From Candidatus Omnitrophota bacterium (lineage in GTDB: Bacteria > Omnitrophota > Gorgyraeia > Tantalellales > Tantalellaceae), in NCBI GenBank assembly GCA_028715965.1, contig JAQUQS010000004.1, positions 61,963 to 125,962 of the forward strand: 64,000 nucleotides of DNA, given 5' to 3'. Both the position numbers and the translations under genes were made by a program. Shown here one piece after another: positions 2,387 to 30,713 of this stretch. The first letter of the stretch is position 1, and every line of letters starts with the position of its first letter. The notes under the pieces are model-generated. The model was not told the DNA's origin. It ran no database searches and saw only the letters and a list, made by a program, of their open reading frames with translations.

Positions 2387-3079
2387 GTGGAGAAAAAAAA
2401 GCTAGTGGCTGTGGTGGATGACAGCCCGGACATCCTGAAAATCGTATCTTTACATCTTGAGAAGGCCGGTTTTTTGTCGCGTTGTTTCAAGAACGCCGGG
2501 AGTTTTCTTAACTCCTTGAAGAGTGAAACGCCGGATTTTCTTATACTTGACCTGATCTTGCCTGATATGGACGGTTTTGACGTGTGTAAGCACATGCGTT
2601 CAGATCCCGCTCTGAAGAACATTCCCATACTGATGCTTACCGCGAAAGACGAAGAAGTGGACAAAGTCCTCGGGCTGGAATTGGGCGCTGATGATTATGT
2701 GACAAAACCATTCATGCCCAGAGAACTTATGGCCCGTGTCAAGACCATCCTTAAACGCTATGAAAGGCCGGAAGAAGAGAGTGACAGTACTATAAGATTC
2801 GGTGATCTTTTAAGCATAGACGAAACCCGGCATGAAGTCATTTTGAACGGCAAATCCCTTGTTTTTACCCCTACAGAGTTCAAGATACTCAAACTTCTGT
2901 GCGCATCGCCCGGGCAGGTCTTTACCCGGGAAGCTATATTAAAGCATTTATGGGGAAGCGAGAAAGTCGTCGTAAAGCGTACGGTTGATGTACACATACG
3001 GCATATACGGGAAAAACTCGGCAAATACGCTGATATAGTAAAGAATGTCCCGGGCGTAGGGTATAAATCCGAACTCTAG
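2387..3079 (+). CDS. OmpR/PhoB-family DNA-binding response regulator
   Basis: REC domain (VVDDSPD..LILDLILPDMDGF..LTAKD) followed by a winged-helix trans_reg_C domain (..FTPTEFKILKLL..VVKRTVDVHIRHIREKL). GTG start after a GGGGAG RBS. No cognate kinase in the window. Confidence 0.85.
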   Translation: MEKKKLVAVVDDSPDILKIVSLHLEKAGFLSRCFKNAGSFLNSLKSETPDFLILDLILPDMDGFDVCKHMRSDPALKNIPILMLTAKDEEVDKVLGLELGADDYVTKPFMPRELMARVKTILKRYERPEEESDSTIRFGDLLSIDETRHEVILNGKSLVFTPTEFKILKLLCASPGQVFTREAILKHLWGSEKVVVKRTVDVHIRHIREKLGKYADIVKNVPGVGYKSEL

Positions 3080-3957
3080 TCTTTAGTCCACTTGCCAGAA
3101 CTCTCAACCTCTGAAAGCAGCATTTCTATCTCCGCCTCTTTTTCCAGATTTGAATTGTTCAGGTCGTTTATTGTTTCTTTCTGGCTTGTGATTATAGCGT
3201 TCAATCGTTCGAGTTCGTGATTTTTAGCGTTCAGGTCCGATATGTGGGTTTTCATCGATGAAGCGTGTTCAGAGGAAAGTTCTTCATATTTGGCGGTAAG
3301 GAACGAGATCATTTCATCCTTTTTCAGCACTGAGCCGGATGTGGTGTCCTCTACTTTTTTCAGGGAGAGACTGTTGTATGCCATTATCGCGAAAAGGAAA
3401 GAGAGAAGTATCGCTCCGGTCAATACTCGCAATAGGGATGTTCTTTTTGGGCGAGGTATCGCGGATAATTTTTCGTTGGTGGTAGCGAACGCGTTATGTA
3501 TCTCATCAAGCCTTTGAGTGAGTGTCTTAGTGTCTTTTTGCAGGTAAGCGATATCAGAAATAGACTTTTCCAGTGTTGTGACGACCGAACGGACCTGTTC
3601 GATCTTTCCCAGCAGAAGCTCGGTTTTCCCGTCTTGTGAATACATATCGATATCCCGGGTGAGGGGGATGTCATGTGTGTGCGGCTGGTCTCCCTGGCTG
3701 TCATCGTCATCGTTGGAGGACAGCCATCCGGAGTTTGGTGCCGGGCCGTCAAAGCCGAGTAAAGTCTCAACATTTATGTTCGGATATTCCCTCTGAACAT
3801 CGTTCTTCAATACATATAAGCTGTTCTCATGATTTATGGCAAGCAGGCGTTTATCTCGTATCTCATCTTTGACTATAGTAGTTGGAACGCCTAAGGCAGT
3901 TGAAAGTCGATTCAACTCGATAAACTCACGACCCAATCCATCTCGATATGTAGTCAT
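3076..3957 (-). CDS. hypothetical protein: N-terminal HTH-like segment, one TM helix, coiled-coil C-terminus
   Basis: GGAGGT RBS upstream of ATG (minus strand). N-terminal LSTALGVPTTIVKDEI looks HTH-like, with a hydrophobic helix LLRVLTGAILLSFLFAIMAY and Q/E/L-rich heptads. Convergent with the response regulator, overlapping it by 4 nt. Confidence 0.4.
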   Translation of the reverse strand: MTTYRDGLGREFIELNRLSTALGVPTTIVKDEIRDKRLLAINHENSLYVLKNDVQREYPNINVETLLGFDGPAPNSGWLSSNDDDDSQGDQPHTHDIPLTRDIDMYSQDGKTELLLGKIEQVRSVVTTLEKSISDIAYLQKDTKTLTQRLDEIHNAFATTNEKLSAIPRPKRTSLLRVLTGAILLSFLFAIMAYNSLSLKKVEDTTSGSVLKKDEMISFLTAKYEELSSEHASSMKTHISDLNAKNHELERLNAIITSQKETINDLNNSNLEKEAEIEMLLSEVESSGKWTKD

Positions 3958-4093
3958 AGTTTTTCTAACCTCCTCAAGATGTAGTATATATTAAATTACC
4001 TATTATGTCAAATTTATAAAATACGCTTATATATATAAAATACATGAAAGTAAATATTAAATAATAATTAACTAAATAAAAATCCAGTTTTAA

Positions 4094-4121
4094 TTGCATT
4101 TCATAACAATCTAAGTATACT
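4094..4121 (+). promoter_or_regulatory. sigma70-like promoter TTGCAT-N16-TATACT for the tpsA-1 leader
   Basis: Near-consensus -35/-10 hexamers with 16-nt spacing in an AT-rich intergenic region, about 40 nt upstream of the riboswitch-like element. Confidence 0.4.
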
Positions 4122-4162
4122 TAATATAGATACTAAAACTGGTTCTTTTAAATGGATTTTTT

Positions 4163-4297
4163 GAAAAAGGCAACCTCCGTGAAAGCGGAAGGGCGCAAAG
4201 CTATAAGAGCCTAAGACCTCAAGGGGTTACGGTAGTCAGCTGCCAAAGAGAGAAGGTATACATTGACCCATGGCTATTATAGTCATGGGTTTTTTTA
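4163..4297 (+). ncRNA. candidate c-di-GMP-I (GEMM) riboswitch aptamer (4163-4244) plus intrinsic terminator (hairpin 4267-4289, U-tract 4290-4296) in the tpsA-1 5' UTR
   Basis: AAAAAGGCAACC..UGAAAG..GGGCGCAAAGCU..GCCUAAG..GGGGUUACGGUAG..CAGCUGCC aligns block by block with the GEMM consensus and the Vc2 riboswitch (GGCAAACC / GNRA loop / GGGACGCAAAGCC / GCCUAA / GGGGUUACCGA / GCUnCC). Followed by a 10-bp hairpin CCCAUGGCUA-UUA-UAGUCAUGGG and U7. Confidence 0.5.
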
Positions 4298-4359
4298 TCC
4301 CCCGTAGCCAGATAGGATATGAGTAGATAGGCGTAGGAGGATTATTTAGGGGCAAAGAG

Positions 4360-7300
4360 ATGAAGATGACGGGACTGCTGAAGAGAACGGTGAGCGTACT
4401 TGTGGTGTTCAGTTTTTTGAACGCTCAGGTGGCGTATTCTCTCCCACAGGACGTTGAGGTGGTGGAAGGCGCGGCGGATGTTAACATAGAAGGCGCGACG
4501 ATGACGATAAACGCCGACGCCGGCACTATCCTGAATTATTCCTCGTTCGACCTTGCCGAGGGGGAGTCAGTGATAATAAACCTGCCGGGGATAGACGCGG
4601 ATATACTTAACCGTGTTATCGGCGCCGGCGCGTCGAACATAGCGGGGGCCATCTCATGTAACGGGCTTTTCATACTCGTGAACACTAGCGGTATATATCT
4701 CGCGTCGACGGCGAATATCGACGTTGGCAGTCTGGTGCTTTCCACGCGGGATATCACTAACTCTGATTTTGTTAACGGGAAGTATTTCTTCCAGAAGATC
4801 TCGGAGGAAGCGCTGGATACGCTCCTTAAGAACGCGGGCACGATAAACGTGCGTGAAGGCGGGTTCGGCGTCCTTATAGCGGGAGCGATAGAGAACTCGG
4901 GTATGATCGTGGCGCCTATGGGGCGTATACACCTGGCCGCGGGAGACGCGGTGACACTCGCGCTTTCGAGTGACGGGCTTATAAGTGTCGCGATAGACGA
5001 GAAGGTGGCGTCGACGATACATGATATGGACGGGAACCCGATAACCGACCAGATAACGAATACCGGTTCGATCATAGCCGACGGCGGGGTAGTGGCTATA
5101 AGCGCCGAGTCGCTCACGGACATATTCAGGAACGCTATAAATCTTGATGGTATAGTGCAGGCGGATACGATGAGTTCTACTGCTGGCGAGATAAGTATAA
5201 CCTCCTCGAGTGATATAACCCTCGGGGGTGGGATATCAGCCGTAGGGGGCATGATAGGAGTGATCTCGGAGGAAGGGTCGATAAGAGCCGAGGAGACATC
5301 GGAGATGACGGCGCAGGACGTATACGTGGAGGCCCAGAGGGACATATCTCTTGAGGGAACGATAGAGACGATGGAAGGTGGGCTTGTCGATCTCCACGCC
5401 CTTAACGGGTCGATGTACTCACATGGTTCCATAATAGCGCCTGAGGGGGAGATAAATGTGTGCGCGGCGTATGACCTTGACCTCGGGGGGTTCTACAAGG
5501 CGAGCCGCATGGTGTTCGACCCTGAGGAAGTGAACATAACGAGCGACTGGACGGGATCAGGGGATACGACGTTCTGGGCGACGGGGAACATAAATGTGCA
5601 GGCTAACATGACGCTGGAGGAAGGTAGCTTTTATTTCTATGCCGATTCCACCGATGCCAGCGGCACATATGACGACGGTTCGGGTACGTTCACGCAAAGC
5701 TCCAGCTCAACTATAACCGCTGATTATGATATATCCATAGACGGCTCCGGGAGCGTATCGGTGGGCGGAATAGTGTCTACTAGCGGTAGTCTTTATGTGG
5801 GGAATGTTACGGGGGATCATACGAATTCTTATGTAGCGGTTGTGAGTGACCTGAATGTTGCCGAAGATATATCATTAAGCTCATCGGGTGGTATCGGTGT
5901 ATATACCGGCAATACCCTGCAGGCCAACAATATGGACATAAACGCTGACATGGACGGTAATGGTACCGGCTCGTTCTCCATGTTTTCCGGAACGGCTTTG
6001 ACGCTTACAGGCGGAGACCTTTCAATAAGCGCGGGGGAGAATAGTACTTTGGAGGATATCTCCGGGGTCGATCTTTTTACGATAGGATCGACCACCGCGG
6101 CAGGGATAAGTTTTACGTGTGACGCGGCGAACACATTCAGCGTGGATACGTTCAAGACACTTGGCGACGGCTCCACGACTTTTGTGAGGGCGGTCGGTGA
6201 TGGGACCAGTATCCCGCGGATGGTATACGATATAACACAGCTTCAGGCGATGCAGGATAACCTCAGTTGGGATTACCAACTTGCCAACAATATAGACGCG
6301 TCGGCGACTGCCGGCTGGAATTCAGGTGAAGGTTTCGTTCCTGTCGGGGATGATGTGTCGAAATTCACGGGCACATTTGATGGGGGGGGTAAAGTGGTCT
6401 CGGGACTTTTTGTGGACACCACACAGTCTTATACCGGCCTTTTTGGATATGTTTCCGGCGCTACATTATCTGACGTCGGGCTAGAAGATATCTCCATAAC
6501 TGCTACTGTGTCGACCGGGTATGCCTATGTGGGCGGCTTATCCGGATATGCCCAGGATACGCTAGTAACTAACGTATATACAACCGGTTCTGTTGATGCT
6601 ATCAGACCAGGTGGGGTTGCGTTTGGCGGTGGGTTAATAGGTTGCAACGAGGCCAGCGCGTTAGGGCAAGAGGCGAATATAACGAGTTCATATTCTTTGG
6701 CTGATGTGTCAGTGAACGCTCACTCTGGTTATGCGGGTGGGTTGATAGCCCAGAATTCCGCGAACGGTGGCGGGTCGGCGGATATCGCGGATTGTTATGC
6801 GACGGGCTCGGTTTCGATGACAGCTTCATCGTTTTATGCTATGGCGGGAGGGTTGGTCGGACAGAATGTGGCGTATGCCTTTGAAGGAGGACCATCGCTT
6901 CCATGTGCCAACATAACGGGTAGTTATGCTACGGGCGAGGTCCAGGCATCTTCAGGCGGAACGGGTGATGTATGCGCGGGAGGGTTAATAGGGTATAACA
7001 CGACCACTGAAGATAATGCGCTCATAACGGATTCGTACGCCACGGGAAATGCTACCGCTTCAGGAGGTACTAGTACTTACGCGGGAGGGCTCATTGCGTA
7101 TAATGACGCGATCTCAAATGGGGACGCGACCATTACAAGGTCGTACGCTACGGGAGACGCGTCGGCTACAGGGGCGGGAACGACATACGCTGGTGGCCTG
7201 GTCGGGTATATGGACGCGGCTATAATGTCCACGGCGGATGCCGTGGATTCTTTTGCTCTGGGAACGGCCACCGCAACGGGCGGCTCGACCAATTATGTTG

Positions 7301-10300
7301 GTGGGCTGGGAGGGTATATTGATATCGATAGGGATGTCTCTACCAGCAGGTGGTATAACGCTTCGAATACTGATGGTGTCGGTTCACTTGCCGATGGGGA
7401 TACGTTGAAAGAAATAGCCGAGTATTTCACTGACGGCAGCTCAGAGATATATACAAACTGGGATTTCACGGTCGATGGGACCGGGGCGGGTTCGGGAACG
7501 TGGATCATGGCGGGTCTGCCGCACCTCCAGATGGAATGGACGGACACCATAACGACCCTGGAAGAGCTGCAGATGATCCTGCTGGACTATGACGTGTCAT
7601 ATACCCTTGCGAATGACATTGACGCGGCGGCGACGACGGGCTGGAATTGGAACAGCACACGTGGCGTGTATGAGGGGTTCAAGCCATTGACGCTTTTCTC
7701 CGCGACATTTGACGGTTCGGGGTATGAGATATCCGGACTTAACATTGACCGTACCGATACCAATATAGGGATGTTCGGAGTGGTCTTTGCCAGTACGATC
7801 CAGGATCTTTCCCTTTCTTCGGCCAGCATAACGCACAGTGACGCCGTAAGTTCTTATAATCTTGGGGGTGTGGCGGGGTTGGCATATAGCGCTTATCTCA
7901 ACGACATATCGTTCTCGGGAACAGTTTCTGGCTCTACCAGTTCAGGTGACGCGTTTATCGGAGGTCTAACTGGATATATGAACGCCGGGGGCGTAAGCGG
8001 GATCAGTACTGCGGGGACCGTAACCGGGGCATCGAGCCTAGGCAAATGCTATGTGGGAGGGGTGATAGGGCAGTTATATACATCGGCCGCGGGGACCATC
8101 GAGGTAACGCTTTCCGATTCTTCTGCCGATGTCTCCGCGGATTCTGTGGGAGGATATAATTTCGTGGGAGGGCTTATCGGGTCCATAGAGCTGGCTGATT
8201 TCAACCTGGGAAGCGTTTGTAACGTTACTGATTCATACGCCACGGGGGACGTTTCCGGTAATACCACATTCACCCATGTTCTCGCCGGGGGACTTATAGG
8301 CAGGCTGTATATCGCGTACAATGCCGATGTTAACGTGGAAGATTGTTACGCCACAGGTGATGTTTCAGCTACGGGAACACAGCAGGCCCGTGCCGGGGGG
8401 TTGATGGGGCAATTTTCCTCAAATGGCGCTGAATCATACGTAACAATGAACAACTGCTACGCTACGGGAGATGTTACGGCGGTGGCCGGACTTACCGATG
8501 AGTATCCCGCTATGGCGGGTGGGCTGATAGGCTTGGTCCGGGCCGACGCGGACGGGACGACCATTATCAATAACTCTTTCGCAACGGGGACCGCTTCGGC
8601 CACGGGAGCCAGGCCGCGTGAATGCGGATTGGTAGGATGGGATGCCGGGGGAGAATACAATGATTGCCTGTGGTTTAACTCCACAAATATACAGGGGATG
8701 TACTTCGAGACACCTGACTCATATGACGGTACGGCGCTGAAGGCCGCCAGTCTTCCGGACCTTTTCGACGCGGATAGCGATCTTTTCTCTACATGGGATC
8801 TTACCGCGGACGGTACCGGCGGACAATGGGTCATACAAAGCAGGGCCGCTCCCCCCGATTTTTACAGGGAATACAACGTATGGACGGGCGGTGGAACGAC
8901 CAATAATTGGTCGGATGCCGCTAACTGGAGCGCCTTAGCCGCACCATCGATCTTTAGCAAAGTACTTTTGAGTTCCGTTAGCACGAAAAGTGTCACATGG
9001 GATTCTGATATCACCGTGGCAAAAATGCATATAGATGCTTCGTACACGGGACAATTGACACAGGGTGACGGGTACGAGCTTACCGCCACGGACGTTTATT
9101 ACCAGGGCGGTGGTACCGTGCGGACATCGGGAACGGACCTTTCTGTCGAGGGAGGTACTTTTGTGCAGGACGGAGGAAGCATCACGCTGGCCAGTGGCGG
9201 GGATATCTACCTGGATAGCGCCGGGTATATGGAGCTTTATGACGTCTCCTGCGGGGACGAAAGCACTATATACTTAGGTTCAAGGGAAGCCCCGAGCTCG
9301 GTAGTCGTGACCGGGACGATAAGCACGTTATATCCCGGTGGGTCCCAAAGCGGTCTTGAGATATATTCCGATGGCGGGATAAGTGTCGAAGGCGCGGTGG
9401 GCGGTTCAACTTATTATTTCGACTCCATCCACCTTTACCTGGACCATGATGATAACTCCGCGCTCAGCAATATACACGGAAGTTTTTACGCTGACCTGGT
9501 ATATGTACTCGCGCAGAACAATATTGTGGTGGACGGCACACTGGCCAATGACGCGGGAGCTCTTTACGTTGGGCAGCCGGGATATACCCCGGATTCTATA
9601 ACCCAGGACGGGAGAGTGCGGGCCGCTACTTATGTGGGAATGTATGCTAACGTGGACATAAACATGTACGATGAACTGTCCTCTAACGCTAGCATGTGGA
9701 TAATGGCCGATTATGACGATAACGGGTCAGGGGCCTTCCGGCAGGTAAGCGGCAGTATAGTTTCATATGGCGACCTATCCATAGATGGTTCCGGGGAGAT
9801 GGTCCTGGGTTATGTTTATCTGGGAGATAGCGCGGACATGACCATAGGAGAATATCGCACTCCGGATATCGTAACGATCGATATTGGTGTGGGCGGTGCC
9901 GCCGGAGGCGGGGACATCTCTATATATTCGAACGGAGATATCAACCTGGGCGGGGATATAGGTTCCGGTTCTACGGTATTCAATAACGTCAGGTTCTACC
10001 CGGACTATGACTCAAATGCCGGGATGAGTACCGTGGGAGGAAATGTATACGCGGATTATTTTTATATCGAGACGGATTCACCGCTGTCCCTTACTGAGAC
10101 CAATGTCTATGGTGGAGGACTTTATGTGGGGGCGTTGGGCAGGGCTCCGATTTCCGTGTCGACCTTGGAGCCTTTATATGGGTTCTATGACATCGATATA
10201 TATTCCGACGGAGATATCCTTATCGGGGACGATATATATGGATATGAAGTTGAGCTGTTCGCGGATTATGATGGCAATGGCACGGGAAGTTTCACCCAGA

Positions 10301-12675
10301 CCGGGGGGATAATCGAGTCATACGGGGATATAGTGATAGACGGTGTAGGGGATATGGATTTGGGCGCCATTACGATAAATGACGGGAGCGATATAATAAT
10401 CGGGTCTTCCAGAAAGCCGAGCTCCGTTACGTTGAACGGGGTGATAACGGGTATCAACGACCCATATCTGGAGATATGTACCAGCGGGAACATATTGCAG
10501 AACGCGGATATCGGAGCGGAAGGCCTGGCGTTCGGTTCCGTTAGGTTCTATATGGATGATGATATGGCCAATGGATACGGCGGATTTATCGCCAATAGCG
10601 GGACTATCTACGCGGATAATGTCGTTCTAGAGGCCCCGGGAGATATGGAATTGGGCGGTATAAGTGTATATGGCGGCGATCTATGGACTTACGGAGATCA
10701 TATTCCCAGCAGCCTTACTTTGACGGGTGATGTAAGTGTCGGGTACGGGGATATATATATAAGCACCCTGGGAAGCTATGACCAGTCCTCATCAGTGGTT
10801 TCCACGACGGGTTCGGGATCGATAAGCATTACGTCCACTGGGACGTCGTATCTTAACGATATTAACGGGGCTGAAGGGATACTTCTTCTGGCCAACAGCG
10901 GCCAAAGCGCGGTTTATAACGCGTCGGATTCGATGTTCAACATTACCGGCGGTATCGGGATATCAAGTAACGTAACTCTTAACGGCCAATCATCGGATAT
11001 CAGGCTCTCGGGAGCTTGGACCAATAGTGGCATATTTAACGCGGGTACATCCATTGTTACTTTCAATGGGGCCGGTACAGGGGCCATTTACGGGTCGAAC
11101 ACTTTTTATGATCTCAAGTGCGTTACTCCAGGCAAGACGTTGAGGTTCGCGGCGGGACGAACCCAGGTAGTATCGGGGGCATTGACGCTTGGCGGGACAG
11201 AAGCTAATAAGGTGATCCTTTCCAGTACTTCCGATGGGACCCAATGGCATATAGACGCGAGAGGGAGCATGTCTATAGCTAATGTTTCGGTAAAAGATTC
11301 GTTCAACGATAAAGGTCTCTATATCGACCCGGCCGGTTCTATTGATAGAGGGGGTAATTCGTACTGGTTCACGCCCTCGGTGCCACAGGATGATCCGGTC
11401 GACAATGACAATAATGTGCCGGGAGAAGGTAGCGAGACACTGGATGAAACCGTTTTGTTGGATGAGGCCCCGGGAGACAACGATATAGGGGACCAGGATA
11501 TGGGGGACGTCGTGAACACCGGACAGGAGACGTCGGGAGATGAAACTAGCATCGAGAACGCGGGTGATGATATGGCCGGCGAGACAGGGGGAGAAGAGGA
11601 TGACCCTGAGCCCACGGTCATGGCCGCTTCCACCTCGGTCGAAGATGGAAGTAGTGATGGCGGCACCTCGACCGATGGGTCCACGGATGAGGATAATGAC
11701 GAAAATAGCGGTGGGACAGATGACGGTTCGGATGATATCTCTGATGAGGACGCCGGCGGGACGATCGTGGATGACGGCGAGGACGAAGAGGGGGACAGTG
11801 GCTCAAAGAAGAAAAAGAGCTCCGGGAATGCGCAGAAGTTGAGCGTTTCAGGAGAGGAAGAAGATGATGCTGAGGGCGCGTCGGCCGGGACTGGCGTAGG
11901 TTCCGAAGAAGATAAAGAGAATAAAAAAGAGAAGACGGAGCGAGGTCCGATGGATCGGCAGAACGTTATTGATGCGTTGTCCGCCAGAGGGTTTACATGG
12001 AATCCTTCGACCGGGACATTCGAAAAAGGGTTCCAACCTGGCGAGTATCACACAAAAGTATTCGTGTTCGAGGGAGAGGTCCTGGTGAATACGTTCAAGG
12101 GCGTAGCGCTTGACCCGTCAAATCTCACGATACTTACTAACGGACAACATATCAGTATTGGTGGAGTTTTTGATGGAGAAAAAGAACTGCTTGCCGGGGA
12201 TGATGGCGTAGAAATCCGGGGTCAGTTGCCTGAACTTGGTGGAGAAGACGGTGAACTCTCGGATATAGTCGGGCGTACGGGCAAGATCACCGCTATAAGC
12301 GGAAAAGTCGATATCATAAAGAAAGCGGGGCAAGAGAACGTTTCGGCACAAATAGGCATGACCCTTGAGGAGGGGGATGTATTGGTGACTGATACGGATA
12401 GCGAGGCGACCATTGAGCTTGCCGGTAAAAAGGGCAAAACAGCCGCGGAAGTTGACCTGTCGGAAAATACCCAGATCATGGTCGATGAGCTTAGTCTTGT
12501 CCCAGATAAGGGTACGGAAGATACCTTGCTGGATATTGCCGTGGGGAAGATACTTGTTAAGGTCGAAAGCCTAAAGGACAGTGGGGGGTCCACTTTTGAG
12601 ATCCAGACACCTACCTCCATCGTAGCGGTAAGAGGGACGGTTTTTACGGTGGAAGTAAGCCCATCCAAAGAATAA
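4360..12675 (+). CDS. two-partner secretion exoprotein TpsA-1 (2771 aa): signal peptide, TPS/haemagglutination-activity domain, GLUG-type repeats, DYDxDGxG repeats, acidic D/E-rich linker, FecR-like C-terminal domain
   Basis: N-terminus (signal peptide; ..ILNYSSFDLAEGESVIINLPG..ILNRVIGAGASNIAGAISCNGLFILVNTSGIY..) matches the FhaB/ShlA-type TPS domain. Central region has reiterated GGLIGYN..SYATGDV blocks (GLUG motif). C-terminus ..VAVRGTVFTVEV fits the FecR domain pattern. A cognate TpsB gene lies downstream. Confidence 0.85.
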   Translation: MKMTGLLKRTVSVLVVFSFLNAQVAYSLPQDVEVVEGAADVNIEGATMTINADAGTILNYSSFDLAEGESVIINLPGIDADILNRVIGAGASNIAGAISCNGLFILVNTSGIYLASTANIDVGSLVLSTRDITNSDFVNGKYFFQKISEEALDTLLKNAGTINVREGGFGVLIAGAIENSGMIVAPMGRIHLAAGDAVTLALSSDGLISVAIDEKVASTIHDMDGNPITDQITNTGSIIADGGVVAISAESLTDIFRNAINLDGIVQADTMSSTAGEISITSSSDITLGGGISAVGGMIGVISEEGSIRAEETSEMTAQDVYVEAQRDISLEGTIETMEGGLVDLHALNGSMYSHGSIIAPEGEINVCAAYDLDLGGFYKASRMVFDPEEVNITSDWTGSGDTTFWATGNINVQANMTLEEGSFYFYADSTDASGTYDDGSGTFTQSSSSTITADYDISIDGSGSVSVGGIVSTSGSLYVGNVTGDHTNSYVAVVSDLNVAEDISLSSSGGIGVYTGNTLQANNMDINADMDGNGTGSFSMFSGTALTLTGGDLSISAGENSTLEDISGVDLFTIGSTTAAGISFTCDAANTFSVDTFKTLGDGSTTFVRAVGDGTSIPRMVYDITQLQAMQDNLSWDYQLANNIDASATAGWNSGEGFVPVGDDVSKFTGTFDGGGKVVSGLFVDTTQSYTGLFGYVSGATLSDVGLEDISITATVSTGYAYVGGLSGYAQDTLVTNVYTTGSVDAIRPGGVAFGGGLIGCNEASALGQEANITSSYSLADVSVNAHSGYAGGLIAQNSANGGGSADIADCYATGSVSMTASSFYAMAGGLVGQNVAYAFEGGPSLPCANITGSYATGEVQASSGGTGDVCAGGLIGYNTTTEDNALITDSYATGNATASGGTSTYAGGLIAYNDAISNGDATITRSYATGDASATGAGTTYAGGLVGYMDAAIMSTADAVDSFALGTATATGGSTNYVGGLGGYIDIDRDVSTSRWYNASNTDGVGSLADGDTLKEIAEYFTDGSSEIYTNWDFTVDGTGAGSGTWIMAGLPHLQMEWTDTITTLEELQMILLDYDVSYTLANDIDAAATTGWNWNSTRGVYEGFKPLTLFSATFDGSGYEISGLNIDRTDTNIGMFGVVFASTIQDLSLSSASITHSDAVSSYNLGGVAGLAYSAYLNDISFSGTVSGSTSSGDAFIGGLTGYMNAGGVSGISTAGTVTGASSLGKCYVGGVIGQLYTSAAGTIEVTLSDSSADVSADSVGGYNFVGGLIGSIELADFNLGSVCNVTDSYATGDVSGNTTFTHVLAGGLIGRLYIAYNADVNVEDCYATGDVSATGTQQARAGGLMGQFSSNGAESYVTMNNCYATGDVTAVAGLTDEYPAMAGGLIGLVRADADGTTIINNSFATGTASATGARPRECGLVGWDAGGEYNDCLWFNSTNIQGMYFETPDSYDGTALKAASLPDLFDADSDLFSTWDLTADGTGGQWVIQSRAAPPDFYREYNVWTGGGTTNNWSDAANWSALAAPSIFSKVLLSSVSTKSVTWDSDITVAKMHIDASYTGQLTQGDGYELTATDVYYQGGGTVRTSGTDLSVEGGTFVQDGGSITLASGGDIYLDSAGYMELYDVSCGDESTIYLGSREAPSSVVVTGTISTLYPGGSQSGLEIYSDGGISVEGAVGGSTYYFDSIHLYLDHDDNSALSNIHGSFYADLVYVLAQNNIVVDGTLANDAGALYVGQPGYTPDSITQDGRVRAATYVGMYANVDINMYDELSSNASMWIMADYDDNGSGAFRQVSGSIVSYGDLSIDGSGEMVLGYVYLGDSADMTIGEYRTPDIVTIDIGVGGAAGGGDISIYSNGDINLGGDIGSGSTVFNNVRFYPDYDSNAGMSTVGGNVYADYFYIETDSPLSLTETNVYGGGLYVGALGRAPISVSTLEPLYGFYDIDIYSDGDILIGDDIYGYEVELFADYDGNGTGSFTQTGGIIESYGDIVIDGVGDMDLGAITINDGSDIIIGSSRKPSSVTLNGVITGINDPYLEICTSGNILQNADIGAEGLAFGSVRFYMDDDMANGYGGFIANSGTIYADNVVLEAPGDMELGGISVYGGDLWTYGDHIPSSLTLTGDVSVGYGDIYISTLGSYDQSSSVVSTTGSGSISITSTGTSYLNDINGAEGILLLANSGQSAVYNASDSMFNITGGIGISSNVTLNGQSSDIRLSGAWTNSGIFNAGTSIVTFNGAGTGAIYGSNTFYDLKCVTPGKTLRFAAGRTQVVSGALTLGGTEANKVILSSTSDGTQWHIDARGSMSIANVSVKDSFNDKGLYIDPAGSIDRGGNSYWFTPSVPQDDPVDNDNNVPGEGSETLDETVLLDEAPGDNDIGDQDMGDVVNTGQETSGDETSIENAGDDMAGETGGEEDDPEPTVMAASTSVEDGSSDGGTSTDGSTDEDNDENSGGTDDGSDDISDEDAGGTIVDDGEDEEGDSGSKKKKSSGNAQKLSVSGEEEDDAEGASAGTGVGSEEDKENKKEKTERGPMDRQNVIDALSARGFTWNPSTGTFEKGFQPGEYHTKVFVFEGEVLVNTFKGVALDPSNLTILTNGQHISIGGVFDGEKELLAGDDGVEIRGQLPELGGEDGELSDIVGRTGKITAISGKVDIIKKAGQENVSAQIGMTLEEGDVLVTDTDSEATIELAGKKGKTAAEVDLSENTQIMVDELSLVPDKGTEDTLLDIAVGKILVKVESLKDSGGSTFEIQTPTSIVAVRGTVFTVEVSPSKE

Positions 12676-12750: not shown

Positions 12751-12778
12751 TTGTATCGTATTAATAGTATGATATACT
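12751..12778 (+). promoter_or_regulatory. sigma70-like promoter TTGTAT-N16-TATACT for the tpsA-2 leader
   Basis: Same architecture as the promoter at 4094-4121; sequence diverges upstream of it and becomes identical downstream. Confidence 0.4.
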
Positions 12779-12819
12779 TAAATTGATACTAAAACCGGTT
12801 CTTTTAAATGGATTTTTTG

Positions 12820-12953
12820 AAAAAGGCAACCTCCGTGAAAGCGGAAGGGCGCAAAGCTATAAGAGCCTAAGACCTCAAGGGGTTACGGTAGTCAGCTGCC
12901 AAAGAGAGAAGGTATACATTGACCCATGGCTATTATAGTCATGGGTTTTTTTA
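12820..12953 (+). ncRNA. second copy of the candidate c-di-GMP-I (GEMM) riboswitch plus intrinsic terminator, in the tpsA-2 5' UTR
   Basis: Nucleotide-identical to 4163-4297 (aptamer about 12820-12900; hairpin 12924-12946; U-tract 12947-12953). Confidence 0.5.
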
Positions 12954-13015
12954 TCCCCCGTAGCCAGATAGGATATGAGTAGATAGGCGTAGGAGGATTA
13001 TTTAGGGGCAAAGAG

Positions 13016-16000
13016 ATGAAGATGACGGGACTGCTGAAGAGAACGGTGAGCGTACTTGTGGTGTTCAGTTTTTTGAACGCTCAGGTGGCGTATTCTCTCC
13101 CACAGGACGTTGAGGTGGTGGAAGGCGCGGCGGATGTTAACATAGAAGGCGCGACGATGACGATAAACGCCGACGCCGGCACTATCCTGAATTATTCCTC
13201 GTTCGACCTTGCCGAGGGGGAGTCAGTGATAATAAACCTGCCGGGGATAGACGCGGATATACTTAACCGTGTTATCGGCGCCGGCGCGTCGAACATAGCG
13301 GGGGCCATCTCATGTAACGGGCTTTTCATACTCGTGAACACTAGCGGTATATATCTCGCGTCGACGGCGAATATCGACGTTGGCAGTCTGGTGCTTTCCA
13401 CGCGGGATATCACTAACTCTGATTTTGTTAACGGGAAGTATTTCTTCCAGAAGATCTCGGAGGAAGCGCTGGATACGCTCCTTAAGAACGCGGGCACGAT
13501 AAACGTGCGTGAAGGCGGGTTCGGCGTCCTTATAGCGGGAGCGATAGAGAACTCGGGTATGATCGTGGCGCCTATGGGGCGTATACACCTGGCCGCGGGA
13601 GACGCGGTGACACTCGCGCTTTCGAGTGACGGGCTTATAAGTGTCGCGATAGACGAGAAGGTGGCGTCGACGATACATGATATGGACGGGAACCCGATAA
13701 CCGACCAGATAACGAATACCGGTTCGATCATAGCCGACGGCGGGGTAGTGGCTATAAGCGCCGAGTCGCTCACGGACATATTCAGGAACGCTATAAATCT
13801 TGATGGTATAGTGCAGGCGGATACGATGAGTTCTACTGCTGGCGAGATAAGTATAACCTCCTCGAGTGATATAACCCTCGGGGGTGGGATATCAGCCGTA
13901 GGGGGCATGATAGGAGTGATCTCGGAGGAAGGGTCGATAAGAGCCGAGGAGACATCGGAGATGACGGCGCAGGACGTATACGTGGAGGCCCAGAGGGACA
14001 TATCTCTTGAGGGAACGATAGAGACGATGGAAGGTGGGCTTGTCGATCTCCACGCCCTTAACGGGTCGATGTACTCACATGGTTCCATAATAGCGCCTGA
14101 GGGGGAGATAAATGTGTGCGCGGCGTATGACCTTGACCTCGGGGGGTTCTACAAGGCGAGCCGCATGGTGTTCGACCCTGAGGAAGTGAACATAACGAGC
14201 GACTGGACGGGATCAGGGGATACGACGTTCTGGGCGACGGGGAACATAAATGTGCAGGCTAACATGACGCTGGAGGAAGGTAGCTTTTATTTCTATGCCG
14301 ATTCCACCGATGCCAGCGGCACATATGACGACGGTTCGGGTACGTTCACGCAAAGCTCCAGCTCAACTATAACCGCTGATTATGATATATCCATAGACGG
14401 CTCCGGGAGCGTATCGGTGGGCGGTGTTGTCTCCAATATGGGAAGCATACATATCGGACAAGTCACAGGCAACCATGATGTGTCGTATATAGGCATGCTT
14501 GGCTCATTGTATGCGAGTAATGAGGTAACGCTTTATTCCGATGGTGATATACACCAAGGTGGGGACATGACAGGTGAGGTCATATATCTGTATCCAGATC
14601 ATGACTCCGATGGCAGCGGCCAGTTCCAGACAAGTTTATCGTATGTCATCAATGGGATGGATCTCTACCTTGACCAGAGCACGGACATAGACATAAGTAA
14701 TTTTAACGCGAATGTGGAATATTTTTATATCGGTAACAACGGGATCACGCCCAGTTCCGTTACGATCGGTGGCGAGAATCATGTGTATGGGACACTCGAC
14801 ATTACTTCCAACGGTGATATCGTCCAGAATGGGACGATCTATTCTGAGGCCGGATACGGGCTTTACCTGCAACCCGATTATGATAACGACGGGAACGGCC
14901 AGTTTATACAAAATTCAGGAAGCATTTGTAACTTTTATGAGATGAGCCTGTATCAGGGTACCAATATCACGCTTGATTATTACATGGACACCTACAATGT
15001 TTACGGGATCAACATATATGGCGAAGGTGAGGTTAACCTCAATGGCGGCATATATGCGACAAGCGATTTGTACGTGTACGCAAATGACGGTATTTCTTTG
15101 GGCGGTCCGCTACATTTCGATTATTACCTTGAGCTAAACGCCGATTATGACAACGATGGGTACGGCAGCTTGGTCGCGAACGGGAACAGCATATCCCCAG
15201 TAAGTTATTTTGATACGGCTAACATAACTACTGCAGGCGATCTTAACGTATCTGACATCGAAAGCCTGTTTTCCGGCGATGTTCCGGCAACTTCTTTGAC
15301 TTTGCGTTCGACCGCAGGCAATATCACACTCGACCAGTATTATGATCCCGAGTTCTTATATTCGCTGCAACTTATAGCGGCTGATGATATCAACTTGAAT
15401 GAGTGGATAGCGTTATCATACGGCAATGTTGGCCTGATCGCCGATTATGACGGAGACGGAGACGGTAATTTCAATTTCTCATCGGCAGGGATAAGCGCGG
15501 GCTCCGTTACTTTCAGTAAGAACAGTGATTTCAGTATCACATCGGATCTTATCTCCGACATAGACGCCAGCAATATCACATTCACGGCCGGCGGGGATTC
15601 CGACCTCTCGGTTGATGCCAGCCTATCATGCAGCGGGGCATTAAATCTACAGGCGGATGGGGATATTTCCATTAATTATGGGGTCAGCACAGGGACCACA
15701 TTTTCGGTCGTTGCCGATTACGACACGGATAATTCCGGGAACGTTATCTGGTATAGCGGGGTGTCCGCGAGTATGGGGACAGGAGGGACGCTGAGATACC
15801 AGCAAGCCGATAGTTTCGCGTATTCGGATGTAACAAGCCGTGTTTATGGACAAACGACAGGAGGGGTCACGTTGAGGTCTACGAACGGTTCGGTGACCGT
15901 GGACCAGGCGATCACGCTCAGGACCGGCATCATCGATCTAAGGGCGGATGAGGACCTGCTTATAAATTCAAATATATCCACCACGAGCTCATCAACTATG

Positions 16001-19000
16001 TATCTTTACGCGGACGCGGAGAACAACGGTTCAGGGGGCTTTATGCAATCGGGGTCGGCTTCTATAACTTCAGGAGGGACCGCCCAGATCGCGCTACGCG
16101 CGGCAGGCACGGGAAGTTTATTGGGCGATATAACGGCCGGCCGGTTATATCTTTACGCGCAGTCAGGTGGCGCCACATATGCGCTCCAGGACGGGTGTAA
16201 TGTGGACCTGAATTATTACACTTCTTCCTATGGTCTTTATGTCGCCAGTAATGCTATATTTAACGGTGGAAATAATACGACCATATCTACGGGAGGAGAC
16301 TGGTGGGTGGACGGCACGTTCAATGGGCAGGGATCTACGGCCATATTGGATGGTACGTATTCCGGCACGAAGGATATACGGATGGACGCGGGCTCATTCA
16401 ATAACCTTACGATAAACGCGAGCGGGACATATTCCCCATATACTTCCACCACGCCTACGGTAGTTGCGGGCGGTGACCTCAGCATCACTGCGGGCATATT
16501 GAGCATGACCACGAACGATCTCGTGGTAGGCGGAGACCTTCTTATCGACGGAGGCGTACTTATCGCCAATGGCGCGGGTGTGGACATTGATGTCGATGGG
16601 GATGTCTTGATCCGCGCGGGGGACTTTTTCGCCCCGACGGGCCTGGACGATGTTTCGTTCACGGTAGGGGGCGGATTTGAAGTATCGGGTGCGGGTGATT
16701 ATTATAACGGCAATGGAAGGGTCGTATTCGATTCATCCGATATAGGGAACGATATCATCCTTACAACCTCCGGGTCCTATTTTTTCAATGACGTAAAGTT
16801 CAGCGGCGGAGGTGAATGGACTCTCACCGGCCTTATGCTGGCCTCCGGTGATCTGTATATGTATGACGGGACGCTCGTCGCCGGAGGACTGATAATAGCC
16901 GCGGATACATTAGCAATGGATGGCGGGAATATCACAAGTGATGGAAATGATGTCGAGATCATCGCTTCGACTTTTACGCAGACAGCGGGGGCGATAACGA
17001 CAACATCAGAAGGGGATGTGAAGATCAGTTCTACCGCTATGCCCGGGGCATTTACTGTCGGGGAGATAAATTCCGATGGTGGTGTTTTCATCGGAGAGAC
17101 CAACGCTCCGGTCACGGTCAGCCAGACATCAGGGACATCAATAACAGCGGTGGGAGATAGAGGCATAGAGATCAGCGCGTCAGGCGATATTACACTGCGG
17201 CAGGTCAATTCCGGAAGTTACGACACGACGATCACGTCAACGGCGGGGTCCATCCTCGACGGGCTTACGGGAGAAAGCGCGAACATAACGGCGGCAGCGG
17301 CTACACTCACGGCGGCTACGGGTATAGGTGTAACTGGAAGCGAGGACCTTGACCTTGACGTGGCGACGCTTGACGCGTCCGTAACGGGTACGGGTGACAT
17401 TTATATATGGGAGGACAGCGCGATAACATTAAGTGATGTTGATACCAGCGCGGGCAAGATAGATATATCATCAGGGGGAACAATGACCGCGACGGATGTC
17501 GTGGCTGGCGATACGGGAGAAGTGTGGCTGACAACGACGAGCGGGAACATACAGGCTGGCGTGATCACGGCTTCCGGGAGCAAGGTAGTTCTCGCAGCCG
17601 CGGGTGCGATAACGGACACGAACGGTGCGAGCGTTAATATAACCGGGAGCACGGTGGACCTTGATGCCGCGACAGGCATAAGTGTGGATACTTCGGTGAA
17701 TAATATCACGGCGGACGTGTCCGGGGTCGGGAATGTCGACATAAGCGAGACAGATGATGTGAACATTAACGGTGTCTCCTCATATGAGGGGGATATCATA
17801 TTGACAAGCGGCGGCGTTATGACCGTTGCCGATGACATATCCGCCACAGGCTTCGGGAATATATCCATGACCGCCGACGGGATGAACCAGACCGGTGGCA
17901 GTATATACGCGCCCGCGGGCGAGATATGGATCGATGGCGCGGGTGATATTGTCCTGGGGGCCATAGAGGCGGCTGGGAATCTGACCATCGGGTCCAATGT
18001 GGCGCCGGATTCCGTGACCTTTAACGAAGATATCCACGCGTATAATAGCATAGACGTTATATCCAACGGGAACATTGACCAGAACGCGGACATATACAGT
18101 GACGGATCGTATGATATCTATCTGCGTCCCGACTATGACGGGGACGGTGCTGGGCAGTATTCGGGCAACGGGCATTCGCTTCTGGTGAACGCGCTTTATA
18201 TCGACCAATCGACCGATATGGTGCTTAACGGGTTTACTCTCCAGAATGGTTATGTGTTAGCCGGCACCCTTAGTGCGCCATCATCAATTACCGTGAACGG
18301 CGATATAAATGGATATTACGCGTTTTACGCGGAAAGTAACGGGAATATCGACGTGAACGCGAATATATACACGCAATATGACCTGTATCTCGACGCGGCC
18401 GGTGATATAAACATAAATTCACTTTTGAGTTCAGGGGACGTGATATCTATAGGGGGATCCATATCGCCATCCTCTGTGACAATAACATCCGCTGGTTCCA
18501 TATATTCGGGGAATACCGTTACAATATCATCCGGCGGTGATCTGGTTTTCGATAACCTGTCAGGGGCGATAGACTCGTATTTCCTGACCGGTAACGCCGG
18601 AAGCGACATAACGGTGGCGAACACCCTCAATATCGGTGTCGGATTATCCCTTGACGCCACGGGCAATATAGATGCCGAGGGCTCGATCGGTGGTATGTCT
18701 GAGACGCTTACCCTTAACGCGGGCGGGTATATTGATATAGCGGGGACCGCTACAGGGATAACCGCTGTAACGATAGACGCTTCGGGTGATGTGACCCTGG
18801 GGGGCATTGACTGCCAGGGAGACCTCGCGATAGGCGGGACGACTTCCCCGGCGAATGTTCACCTTAACGGTAGTAGCACGGTTACGGGTACTAACACGGC
18901 CCAGATCAGTTCGGCCGGGAATGTTGCCTTCAATGGCGATCTTGTCACGATATGTGGTATCACGGTCAGCGCGGTGAATAATGTTACGATAGCTAATAGT

Positions 19001-21109: not shown

Positions 21110-22995
21110 GTCGTTGGTACGGTTAAGGGATCGGTCTCTTTGCGGCGGATCGTCAGGATATTGTTGTCCAGTAGTTCATTTGCCGAAGGGGTCCCGGAAA
21201 GCATGTCGGGAAGACCTTCACGAGGGGTCTCGGAGCGCATACTCTTTATCCTTTCCCATTCCTTGGGCAGGTTCTCCTCGAAAGTAAGGGCGAAATGGAA
21301 ACGCGGGTTCGGGGACTCAGTGGTGGCTTTGTCCGGTCCTATGGGGAACCCCCATTCCAGGCGTAAGAGCGCCTGATTGTACAGACGTATACGTAGTCCA
21401 GCTCCGATGCTGGAATAGTTGACATGTTGTCTCTCCTCATCTTTTCTGGCCGCGCGTTTTTCCCCGTAACCGTAATCCATGAAACACAGGAGGTTCACGT
21501 TGTTACGCAGGCTGTCCTGGGCGTATGGCAGTTTCCATGACTCCGGGATGAACGGGCAGGGGACGAGTAGGTCCAGATTCATTATAAAGCCGTTGTCGGC
21601 CATGTAGTCCTGGGCCGGATATCCGCGTATCGAATCGATACCACCCAGGGAAAGTTGTTCCTGCGACGCGAGTTTTTCTCCGGAGAACTGGGTCTTGATG
21701 TTCAGGGCCGCCTGTAATGAGGCCGGAAATAGTTGCCGGTGTTTTATGTCAAGGTTGAACTTGGTGAAAGTGTTCCCGGCGGTCCCGTTCCTGGAAGAAA
21801 GGGGATGTTTGCGTCTGGCCCCGAACGCGTTAAGCCCCTGGGATAGCTGGGGTGAGATATACGTTATCGCGCCGGGGTTGCGGCTTATGATGTTGCTTTT
21901 GAGCCGGGCGGTACGGAAACGATCGCGTATAAGCGTGCCTTCCTCGGTGGTGGTCACTTTGTCGTTGGAGTCCATGCCCAGCGAAATGTCCCCAAGATAT
22001 TCCGATCTCTTGTACAGGTCCTGGCTGACCGTGAAGCTGGCGCTCTGTGACCTTGACCGTATGCCATAGACAGAGAACTGTTTTCTTGGCGCGGAACGTG
22101 AGTCGGAATATCCGTAAATTATGTTCGTCCCGAAATTTGTTATGGGTACGGAGTGATACATATACATGCCGCTGAAATACTGGCCAAACGTGTATCCGGA
22201 AAGAAAGGTATCATCGACGAAGAGGGCATTATTATGTCTTACTCCGAAACCGTACCTGTCCCCGCCGGTGGAAGGAGCTCCTTCATTGTCGTATGAGAAA
22301 AACCCATGTATGGGGAAGTAAGATGTCGTGTCCAGCATCACGTCGGTAGTTCCTATTTCCTGCCCGGCGATAAGAGTGGCTTTTACGTCCCGGTCGGGAT
22401 TTTTGTTCATGAGTTGCAGGCTCCGGCTCATTTTATCATAACGCAGGACCTGTCCCGGTTTGATGTCCCAGTAGTATTTTACGCGATCGACCTGGTTGGG
22501 GTCTCGGCTTTGTATCTTAAGTTCTCCCATTTTAGCCTCGACCACCCGCAAAGTGACCACGCCGTTCTTGATGTCCTGCGGAGGGAGGAAACAGGCCGCT
22601 ATGACCCCTTTCTTCAGATACTCTTTTTCGATGTTCTTTGTTATCTCCGTGAGCTCCGCCAGGTCGGTATCCTTACCGATGGAATCAGCGAAGAGCGGAG
22701 TGAATTCGTCGGGGGGAAAAGTCTCGGTACCTTCGAGGACCACTTCTTTTAACAGGAAAGTAGGGCCTTGAGGTATGGCTTTTTCCTCTTCCTCGATCTT
22801 TTCGGGTGCCTGGGGAGGCGTTGTCGTGAGTTTTTCCTCGGCTTCCTCGCGGAATGGCCTGTCCACCTCGCGTGTGGCCATGTCTATCGTGCTTTCGCTG
22901 GGGAGAGGCTGGGAGAAACACGCCCGATACACGAGCGTGGACATTAACAATACGAAAACCACCTTTTTAATGAATGATGTGTACATATGATTCAA
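21106..22995 (-). CDS. TpsB outer-membrane transporter (ShlB/FhaC/HecB family, Omp85 superfamily)
   Basis: Signal peptide. POTRA_2-like region (FLLKEVVLEGTETFPPDEF..GKDTDLAELTEITKNIEKEYLKKGVIAACFLPPQDIKNGVVTLRVVEAKMGELKI). Hallmark loop-6 motif EQLSLGGIDSIRGYP. Beta-barrel-like C-terminal half ending ..RFHFALTF. Convergent with tpsA-2; the stop codons overlap by 4 nt. Confidence 0.85.
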   Translation of the reverse strand: MNHMYTSFIKKVVFVLLMSTLVYRACFSQPLPSESTIDMATREVDRPFREEAEEKLTTTPPQAPEKIEEEEKAIPQGPTFLLKEVVLEGTETFPPDEFTPLFADSIGKDTDLAELTEITKNIEKEYLKKGVIAACFLPPQDIKNGVVTLRVVEAKMGELKIQSRDPNQVDRVKYYWDIKPGQVLRYDKMSRSLQLMNKNPDRDVKATLIAGQEIGTTDVMLDTTSYFPIHGFFSYDNEGAPSTGGDRYGFGVRHNNALFVDDTFLSGYTFGQYFSGMYMYHSVPITNFGTNIIYGYSDSRSAPRKQFSVYGIRSRSQSASFTVSQDLYKRSEYLGDISLGMDSNDKVTTTEEGTLIRDRFRTARLKSNIISRNPGAITYISPQLSQGLNAFGARRKHPLSSRNGTAGNTFTKFNLDIKHRQLFPASLQAALNIKTQFSGEKLASQEQLSLGGIDSIRGYPAQDYMADNGFIMNLDLLVPCPFIPESWKLPYAQDSLRNNVNLLCFMDYGYGEKRAARKDEERQHVNYSSIGAGLRIRLYNQALLRLEWGFPIGPDKATTESPNPRFHFALTFEENLPKEWERIKSMRSETPREGLPDMLSGTPSANELLDNNILTIRRKETDPLTVPTT

Positions 22996-27300: not shown

Positions 27301-27558
27301 AAGATACATGAAGGAACGCCTAACGTGATGGACCTGATCCGTAACGGAGAGATAGCCCTTCTTATAAACACTTCTTACGGCAAGAACCCACATAAGGATG
27401 GCAGGGCAATAAGGAGCGCCGCGGTCATGCGGGGCATACCGTGTATAACGACACTTTCCGGCGCGCAAGCGTCAGTTAATGGCATTGAGTCCATGTTGAG
27501 GACAGAGATGACCGTGAAGCCTCTTCAGGACTATTATGGAGCGAATGTACATGGATAA
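24304..27558 (+). CDS. carB: carbamoyl-phosphate synthase large subunit
   Basis: 1084 aa with two ATP-grasp halves (..[24 protein letters not shown].. and ..[21 protein letters not shown]..), an oligomerisation domain and a C-terminal MGS-like domain. Confidence 0.9.
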
Positions 27559-28954: not shown

Positions 28955-28981
28955 ACGGTGCCGGGTATCATTTCAACATAA

Positions 28982-30610
<1,629 letters not shown>

Positions 30611-30684
30611 GTATACTTTCAGAAGTCATAGATCCGTCGGGATATCTATTCTTAATGGGTAAATGCGCGGAATTTTTTTCTTTT

Positions 30685-30713
30685 CTTGACAAGTAAAAAT
30701 ACTTGCTATATAC
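30685..30713 (+). promoter_or_regulatory. consensus sigma70 promoter TTGACA-N17-TATACT with an embedded perfect palindrome CAAGTAAAAATACTTG (30689-30704), candidate operator
   Basis: Hexamers and spacing read directly. The 16-bp palindrome spans the -35/spacer region. Lies upstream of the AbrB-like gene. Confidence 0.45.

Follow-up and report, generated by a model that had tools for sequence, protein, structure and literature searches.

The described elements closest to the one reported here differ in how aptamer and terminator share their strands. In the Cd1 OFF switch of Clostridioides difficile, the T and H strands form the terminator, and T paired with a strand of the aptamer gives the antiterminator, while in the pilM ON switch one strand is common to terminator and aptamer (PMC9262584). 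Vc1, the element upstream of gbpA, is described as an ON element; it lies in a long 5' UTR, and the gene behind it encodes a secreted attachment factor (PMC4744006). Ligand recognition has been worked out for Vc2, in which one guanine of c-di-GMP is recognised by position 20 and the other is paired with C92; Vc2 becomes bispecific when G20 is replaced by A, the base that natural GEMM-Ib (cGAMP) riboswitches have there (PMC6140456).

Here we describe c-di-GMP-I aptamers in a stretch of 64,000 nucleotides from a Candidatus Omnitrophota bacterium (assembly GCA_028715965.1, contig JAQUQS010000004.1, positions 61,963 to 125,962), referred to as the window, in which all coordinates below are given. 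Omnitrophota are uncultivated, mostly very small bacteria, and their lifestyle has been deduced from genomes alone. The usual pattern is that high c-di-GMP favours attachment. Overall, we judge it quite probable that a c-di-GMP-I riboswitch working as a Cd1-type OFF switch precedes each of two giant exoprotein genes in the window, tpsA-1 and tpsA-2.

Class and anatomy of the aptamer in the tpsA-1 leader

When the whole 64-kb window was searched against the 4,227 families of Rfam 15 at gathering thresholds, the sole family matched was RF01051 (c-di-GMP-I), at two sites on the + strand (4159–4247 and 12815–12903), and there was no match to c-di-GMP-II (RF01786) in the window at the same thresholds. 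The match at 4159–4247 covered the full model (1–87 of 87) with 65.6 bits (E = 1.3e-10 for this search scope), approximately 30 bits above the RF01051 gathering score of 35. The initial annotation had proposed a GEMM riboswitch from the letters of this leader; its quoted segment is present at 4164–4244 with the conserved blocks, and because RF01051 matches above gathering, the c-di-GMP-I observation stands. A covariance model built from the family of homologous leaders (described below) scored the aptamer at 77.9 bits and found only the two known sites in the window. With its 65.6 Rfam bits, the window aptamer lies below most homologs (67–80 bits) and among the lowest of the family.

Including P1, the aptamer extends over 4157–4250 (+) according to the RF01051 match and our own covariance model. 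The proposed P1, of about 7 bp, closes the junction by pairing UUUUUUG (4157–4163) with CAAAGAG (4244–4250). In the family, P1 opens with G5-C87 and C4-G88, and both the 5-87 and 4-88 pairs are supported; the window carries U4-A88 where the consensus is C-G, which amounts to a compensatory change. The P1a (P2) hairpin occupies 4170–4196 (+; Rfam alignment and pair list), and all six of its stem pairs covary in the homologs. Its outer pairs are G4170-C4196 and C4171-G4195, followed by the CCUCCG/CGGAAGG stem (4175–4180 with 4185–4191), which forms with its GAAA tetraloop (4181–4184) just as had been anticipated. The P1b (P3) hairpin with the tetraloop receptor was placed at 4199–4241 (+) from the Rfam alignment, covariation and the pair list, with receptor halves CCUAAG (4210–4215) and UACGG (4228–4232) and a distal stem joining 4216–4219 to 4224–4227. 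The 3' receptor half, UACGG, differs by one base from the commonest family form, UAUGG. Also found in the window aptamer were GGGCGCAAAGC and the 3' GCUGCC, and 19 of the 21 modelled pairs form. On the sense strand, 112 nt separate the aptamer from the ATG of tpsA-1 downstream, and a terminator lies within this interval. Judged by its sequence, on which the predicted ligand binding also rests, the flagged segment is a genuine class-I c-di-GMP riboswitch aptamer.

Predicted ligand specificity

Vc2 numbering was carried over to the Rfam consensus by our own reasoning, and the putative equivalents named here follow the alignment columns. The counterpart of the Vc2 specificity nucleotide G20 is G4169 (+), an unpaired G ahead of the junction pairs. 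The equivalents of A47 and C92 are A4197, which follows CGC, and C4243, which follows P1b. The window thus lacks the GEMM-Ib hallmark, an A at the G20 equivalent. Given G at position 20 together with the A47 and C92 equivalents, c-di-GMP is the predicted ligand, and the sequence of the window aptamer points to c-di-GMP rather than cGAMP.

Binding of another cyclic dinucleotide, such as 3',3'-cGAMP, or bispecific binding would be the main alternative. In the 61 distinct aptamers that precede genes for TpsA homologs, the G20 position is G in 44, C in 1 and A in 16, the last being the base that makes G20A Vc2 bispecific and that natural GEMM-Ib riboswitches carry (PMC6140456). Five homologous leaders, moreover, score best with the variant model RF03167 (the "GGC" variant, for which our literature search yielded no primary description). 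For the window itself we nevertheless regard such a ligand as highly improbable, since both copies of the aptamer have G at position 20 with canonical A47 and C92 equivalents, and GGDEF and HD-GYP enzymes are encoded in the same window.

Terminator, start codon and candidate promoter

A terminator scan placed a hairpin and U-tract at 4265–4296 (+), with the stem at 4265–4291 and U7 at 4290–4296. The stem, GACCCAUGGCUA-UUA-UAGUCAUGGGUU, begins 18 nt past the aptamer and comprises 12 bp, 5 of them G-C pairs, with a 3-nt loop (-16.4 kcal/mol). A hairpin followed by U7 directly after the aptamer had already been noted, and its reading as a terminator is supported, but the stem has 12 bp from 4265 rather than 10 bp from 4267. 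The scan returned two terminator-like sites in this region, where shuffled sequence would be expected to give 0.2. As no T-run lies behind the hairpin on the opposite strand, it is not the terminator of a neighbouring gene. We conclude that 4265–4296 is a predicted intrinsic (Rho-independent) terminator.

Translation of tpsA-1 starts at ATG 4360–4362, preceded by a Shine-Dalgarno-like AGGAGG at 4335–4340 (together 4335–4362, +). The start codon assigned in the initial annotation is upheld: downstream of the stop at 4324–4326, no other start lies in frame before this ATG. The proposed ribosome-binding site is likewise present, but at 19 nt from the ATG, a rather long gap, it is weaker than had been stated.

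A putative sigma-70-type promoter for tpsA-1 was read from the sequence at 4094–4121 (+), with TTGCAT (4094–4099), a 16-nt spacer and TATACT (4116–4121). The -10 box is good (5/6) and the -35 box poor (3/6), and a promoter scan picked up nothing on the + strand ahead of either aptamer; the promoter is therefore only moderate, and its earlier description as near-consensus was too generous. The promoter must lie within 3958–4158, because the gene upstream (3076–3957) is divergent, and we infer its exact position in that interval from the motifs, with transcription probably starting near 4128.

A second, identical leader and the two-partner secretion genes

The second RF01051 match, at 12815–12903 (+; 65.6 bits, model 1–87), is an identical c-di-GMP-I aptamer and is followed by an identical terminator at 12921–12952 (+; stem 12921–12947 plus U7). 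A candidate -10 box TATACT lies at 12773–12778 (+), and the TG ahead of it (12770–12771) makes it an extended -10. The interval 4116–5768 is 99.8% identical to 12773–14424, and within it a 1,628-bp block (4141–5768 and 12797–14424) is 100% identical. Similarity between the two loci starts exactly at the TATACT box and spans the leader, aptamer, terminator, ribosome-binding region and first ~470 codons, beyond which the two products share only local identity of 27–45%. By virtue of this duplicated identical block, tpsA-1 and tpsA-2 each own an identical riboswitch and terminator. The second aptamer had been missed in the earlier reading of this DNA, which also left the direction of the switch open.

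The first gene, tpsA-1 (4360–12675, +), encodes 2,771 aa with matches to PF05860 (85 bits, cutoff 33.5), PF07581 and PF04773; its product carries a TPS secretion domain at residues 34–290, GLUG motifs and a C-terminal FecR domain. The second, tpsA-2 (13016–21109, +; 2,697 aa), also matches PF05860 at 85 bits, and its first ~470 residues are identical to those of tpsA-1. Convergent with tpsA-2 lies tpsB (21106–22995, -), the outer-membrane transporter partner, with POTRA_2 and ShlB/FhaC domains (PF08479, 57.6 bits; PF03865, 114.5 bits). By Pfam, then, this is a two-partner secretion locus, with a TPS domain in both giant ORFs and a POTRA/ShlB tpsB nearby. The initial annotation had envisaged TpsA export under second-messenger control; the 85-bit TPS domain and nearby tpsB bear out the secretion part, but the controlled step would be transcription of tpsA, not export. 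A third giant ORF (55473–63905, -) was considered as a part of the riboswitch-TpsA system and rejected, having no Pfam domain and no aptamer match in the 95 nt available upstream.

Three proteins with HD-GYP-type (HD_5) domains are encoded further along the window on the + strand: a GGDEF + HD_5 protein (39542–41119), a response-regulator receiver (REC) + HD_5 protein (42561–43568) and an sCache + HD_5 protein (49198–50532). The GGDEF + HD_5 protein equips the genome for c-di-GMP turnover. The density of c-di-GMP-related genes remarked on earlier thus holds for the three HD-GYP proteins, but the supposed PilZ protein (38548–38979) scores 21.6 bits, just under the Pfam cutoff of 22.5.

Conservation of the aptamer upstream of TpsA homologs

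A search of species-representative genomes with the TpsA N-terminus yielded a single locus (L001), in another Omnitrophota MAG, so that a metagenome scan was needed for depth. The TpsA homolog of L001 shares 52% amino acid identity with the window protein, and its leader holds an RF01051 match of 79.1 bits that ends 2 nt before the TpsA start. Scanning metagenomes with an alignment of TpsA N-termini added 77 loci at 40–59% amino acid identity, for a homolog set of 78. Among 40 metagenomic TpsA loci scanned at Rfam gathering thresholds, 32 had an aptamer of the c-di-GMP-I clan upstream on the same strand (27 matched RF01051 at 60–80 bits, and 5 scored best as RF03167). Our own covariance model, built from 27 of the matches, detected the aptamer in 63 of the 78 loci, in every case upstream of tpsA and on its strand.

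The initial annotation had suggested covariation of the P1 and P2 helices in related leaders as a check, and the helices do covary. Across 27 leaders, 95.7% of alignment cells are paired and 15 of 21 pairs show compensatory changes, as measured on a MAFFT alignment that was not fitted to the structure; none of 500 shuffles reached the observed values, and 3' partners slid out of register paired at only 25–43%. RNAalifold independently recovered 18 of the modelled pairs. Together, the presence in 63 of 78 loci and the covariation relative to these controls indicate that the association of the aptamer with tpsA is conserved and under selection rather than due to chance.

The terminator is widespread as well, with a hairpin and U-tract between aptamer and start in approximately 54 of the 63 loci, usually 15–30 nt past the aptamer. 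This count treats seven loci as lacking a terminator (L001, L031, L033, L041, L043, L045 and L050) and regards the candidates at L039 as apparently spurious. Terminator stems of the homologs show unusually strong sequence conservation (CCCAUUC... or CCCAUAG...), while their loops vary. A few loci have the start codon immediately next to the aptamer, and in L001 the AUG lies inside the extended P1, which is also an OFF-type arrangement.

Antitermination and the predicted direction of the switch

In the homologs, the 5' arm of the terminator pairs with the P1a 3' strand and GAAA loop (GAAAGGAUGGG) or, alternatively, with the P1b 3' strand and receptor (GACUAUGG); in this second, type-B antiterminator, GACUAUGG pairs with CCAUAGUC. 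Set against shuffled arms in RNAduplex, pairing between the terminator 5' arm and the aptamer had a mean z of -2.1, and 27 of the 52 cases fell below -2. At four loci (L066, L064, L069 and L013), transcripts cut before the 3' arm fold into the antiterminator, and in the full-length transcripts P1a is restored and the terminator forms. Complementarity to the aptamer strands apparently accounts for the sequence conservation of the terminator stems. By analogy with Cd1 and in these predicted folds, the homologous leaders appear to follow a Cd1-type OFF design, in which c-di-GMP would favour termination.

A related pairing was predicted in the window, where a candidate aptamer strand on the 5' side of P1b (4199–4211, +; AGCUAUAAGAGCC) may pair with a candidate terminator strand (4272–4284, +; GGCUAUUAUAGUC) that runs from the upper 5' arm of the terminator through the loop and 4 nt into the 3' arm. 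The duplex has 11 bp with one mismatch (-13.4 kcal/mol), and its z of -2.9 is reached by 0.8% of shuffles. Because the mismatch is forced to pair when the antiterminator is imposed as a hard constraint, the resulting energy is uninformative, and folds of truncated transcripts were used instead. In these, the antiterminator is the minimum free energy (MFE) fold for transcripts ending at 4282–4286, and the terminator replaces it from 4290 on. The pairing is significant only with the loop and the 4 nt of the 3' arm included (z -2.6 to -2.9), complementarity of the terminator 5' arm alone to the aptamer being not above shuffles (z -0.8). The type-B helix is reduced in the window to an 8-bp remnant with 3 G-U pairs (4230–4237 with 4271–4278). 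With the native aptamer enforced, aptamer and terminator coexist at -39.9 kcal/mol, against -43.2 kcal/mol for the unconstrained MFE. The antiterminator is ~8 kcal/mol weaker than the full-length fold containing the terminator, so that the window terminator could act largely constitutively.

In the mechanism that we propose, each tpsA would be transcribed with a leader of ~230 nt, in which the aptamer is followed 18 nt later by the terminator. With c-di-GMP bound, the aptamer would stay folded, the separate terminator hairpin would form and transcription would stop before tpsA. Without ligand, the aptamer strand 4199–4211 (or the weaker 4230–4237) would pair with the upper terminator (4271–4284), which would delay the terminator hairpin and allow RNA polymerase to read into tpsA. 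On the basis of these folds, we consider it likely that c-di-GMP leads to termination in the window. For c-di-GMP to repress an adhesin-like protein would run counter to the usual association of high c-di-GMP with attachment.

The same riboswitch could instead be an ON switch, in which c-di-GMP prevents termination and induces tpsA. Induction is what would be expected of an attachment factor, and the Vc1 study reports positive action upstream of gbpA (PMC4744006); the weak antiterminator of the window would suit this reading, as would the full-length MFE, which holds the terminator without any ligand term and so resembles a default-off element in need of its ligand. However, ON designs of the pilM kind share a terminator strand with the aptamer (PMC9262584), whereas the window terminator is separate and coexists with the enforced aptamer. 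The linker at 4248–4264, as read from the sequence, shows no complementarity to the terminator from which a ligand-released antiterminator could arise, and in the homologs the 5' arms pair with inner aptamer strands, an arrangement that makes sense for an OFF switch only. We consequently find ON control unlikely.

A further reading is that the element is decaying, or attenuates independently of ligand, so that the aptamer has ceased to switch and tpsA is transcribed at a low constitutive level fixed by the terminator; we consider this very unlikely. Such decay might be read from a bit score among the lowest in the family, the UACGG receptor and the marginal antiterminator. Yet all ligand-contact and junction nucleotides are intact, 19 of the 21 model pairs form, the score stands 30 bits above gathering and P1 has a compensatory U-A pair. 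The Cd1-type OFF switch remains our preferred explanation for both leaders.

Implications and comparison with known riboswitches

What is new here is the host phylum and the target, a two-partner secretion exoprotein; the riboswitch class and the termination mechanism are textbook. Equally new are the duplication of an identical leader and the breadth of the association between aptamer and tpsA, seen at 63 of 78 loci. In the library searched, a full-text literature search found nothing linking c-di-GMP riboswitches with two-partner secretion, with filamentous haemagglutinin-type genes or with Omnitrophota. The findings would add two-partner secretion to the processes under direct c-di-GMP riboswitch control, an incremental gain, and the conserved, sequence-readable link between a second messenger and giant secreted surface proteins provides a concrete hypothesis on the timing of TpsA production. 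More speculatively, there may be an Omnitrophota-wide TpsA riboswitch regulon that is switched off by cyclic dinucleotides, in some lineages via 3',3'-cGAMP or a dual signal, a proposition that we put forward as doubtful. If true, an OFF regulon would turn around the usual association of attachment with high c-di-GMP. About a quarter of the leaders have A at position 20, and if this matters functionally, some lineages would show cGAMP-type riboswitch signalling outside the Geobacter-like lineages from which it has been described.

Among characterized riboswitches, Vc2 (Vibrio cholerae, tfoY leader) has in common with the window element the three-way junction, the GNRA tetraloop with its receptor and the G20, A47 and C92 contacts (PMC6140456). 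The window aptamer differs from Vc2 in that P1a and P1b each contain a 1-nt insertion, one consensus pair is absent and the receptor sequence is UACGG. We know of no comparable intrinsic-terminator platform for Vc2. Vc1 (V. cholerae, gbpA) resembles the window element in being a c-di-GMP-I aptamer within a long 5' UTR, ahead of the coding sequence of a secreted attachment factor (PMC4744006), but Vc1 acts positively whereas the window design points to negative control, and the target protein families differ. GEMM-Ib riboswitches (e.g., Geobacter pilM) have the same fold and, like the window element, a transcription-termination platform (PMC9262584). They are distinguished by A at position 20, ON behavior and a terminator sharing an aptamer strand, in contrast to G20 and a separate terminator in the window.

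Cd1, in the flgB leader of C. difficile, belongs to the same aptamer class and likewise keeps its terminator separate from the aptamer (PMC9262584). Antitermination in Cd1 comes from pairing between the terminator 5' arm and a strand of the aptamer, so that ligand brings about termination, and homologs of the window leader show the same design. The target of Cd1 is a flagellar operon in a Firmicute, and Cd1 has been tested by experiment, whereas the window element, which precedes TpsA exoprotein genes in Omnitrophota, is known here from sequence and predicted folds. The invaded strand differs too, being the P1a 3' strand with the GAAA loop, or a P1b strand, in the tpsA-leader family and the P1b 5' strand, with a weak helix, in the window. 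By this analogy, the window element appears to be functionally closest to Cd1.

Aptamer placement and terminator stems in homologous leaders

Across leaders of TpsA homologs that are only 40–59% identical as proteins, the terminator stem sequence was kept (CCCAUAG... or CCCAUUC...; for example at 1913–1940 in L008, 1712–1737 in L066, and 1930–1963 in L013, where L numbers denote loci encoding TpsA homologs and coordinates are those within each locus), and the terminator loops varied freely. This pattern appears to be explained by the need for the stems to pair with conserved aptamer strands. In other leaders, the aptamer 3' end lay 0–2 nt upstream of the TpsA start codon and was not accompanied by a terminator (L001, an Omnitrophota relative with its aptamer at 2893–2982, as well as L031, L033, L043, and L034/L035). 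The AUG of L001 is enclosed by an extended P1, the aptamer closing helix (CUUCAU paired with AUGAAG), and this arrangement suggests that lineages with a start-abutting aptamer may rely on translational control. A further configuration was found in the aptamers of L036, L040, L041, L046, and L050, where UUUU directly follows the P1 3' strand (AAGAGA); no separate terminator was detected in L041 or L050. Given the position of the UUUU, the ligand-stabilized P1 of these five leaders might itself provide the terminator stem.

The number and integrity of aptamers also varied. Two aptamers were present in tandem within a single TpsA leader in L048 (1503–1590 and 1750–1837) and L034/L035 (1246–1341 and 1868–1991), and tandem aptamers in some cases each had a separate terminator. 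Partial pairs occurred in L031 (1851–1893 and 1931–2002), L033 (1791–1833 and 1871–1942), and L043 (804–846 and 884–955), each consisting of a 43-nt match to only the half containing P1a (the GAAA-loop hairpin), located ~40 nt upstream of an aptamer match without P1a. These could represent either a split aptamer or an aptamer carrying an insertion.

Identical 5' blocks of the two tpsA genes, and neighboring genes

The two tpsA genes of the window share 100% identity over 1,628 bp (4141–5768 and 12797–14424). Similarity starts at the -10 box, and the identical block spans the leader, riboswitch, terminator, and first ~470 codons, past which TpsA-1 and TpsA-2 have diverged to only 27–45% local identity. 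An identical 5' block joined to diverged remainders suggests recent gene conversion or, alternatively, cassette-like exchange of C-terminal parts. TpsA-1 (gene at 4360–12675) terminates in a FecR domain (residues 2674–2767, 33.5 bits), which is unusual for a two-partner secretion (TPS) exoprotein and is absent from TpsA-2. A third giant ORF on the reverse strand (55473–63905, 2,810 aa), with just 95 nt upstream of its start codon inside the window, lacks a TPS domain and matched nothing in Pfam at E ≤ 1e-5. Adjoining the TPS locus is a dense run of nucleotide-biosynthesis genes (23214–38591; among them carA, carB, a glutamine amidotransferase, pyrG, guaA, and the purL/purQ parts), which is closely followed by a PilZ-like ORF and the GGDEF/HD-GYP genes.

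Ligand-specificity position

The variant model RF03167 (c-di-GMP-I-GGC) outscored RF01051 in five TpsA leaders (L010 83–176, L021 1671–1764, L025 41–117, L071 1563–1658, and L072 1550–1645); a literature search retrieved no description of how this variant differs in function. Among the 61 distinct aptamers that precede TpsA homologs, the G20 specificity position (aptamer model column 11) holds A in place of G in 16, namely those of L004, L012, L018, L024, L027, L030, L036, L040, L044, L046, L049, L059, L065, L066, and L067, together with L006, which is included in the count yet aligns poorly in its 5' region. At the sequence level, A at this position is a GEMM-Ib/cGAMP-like signature.
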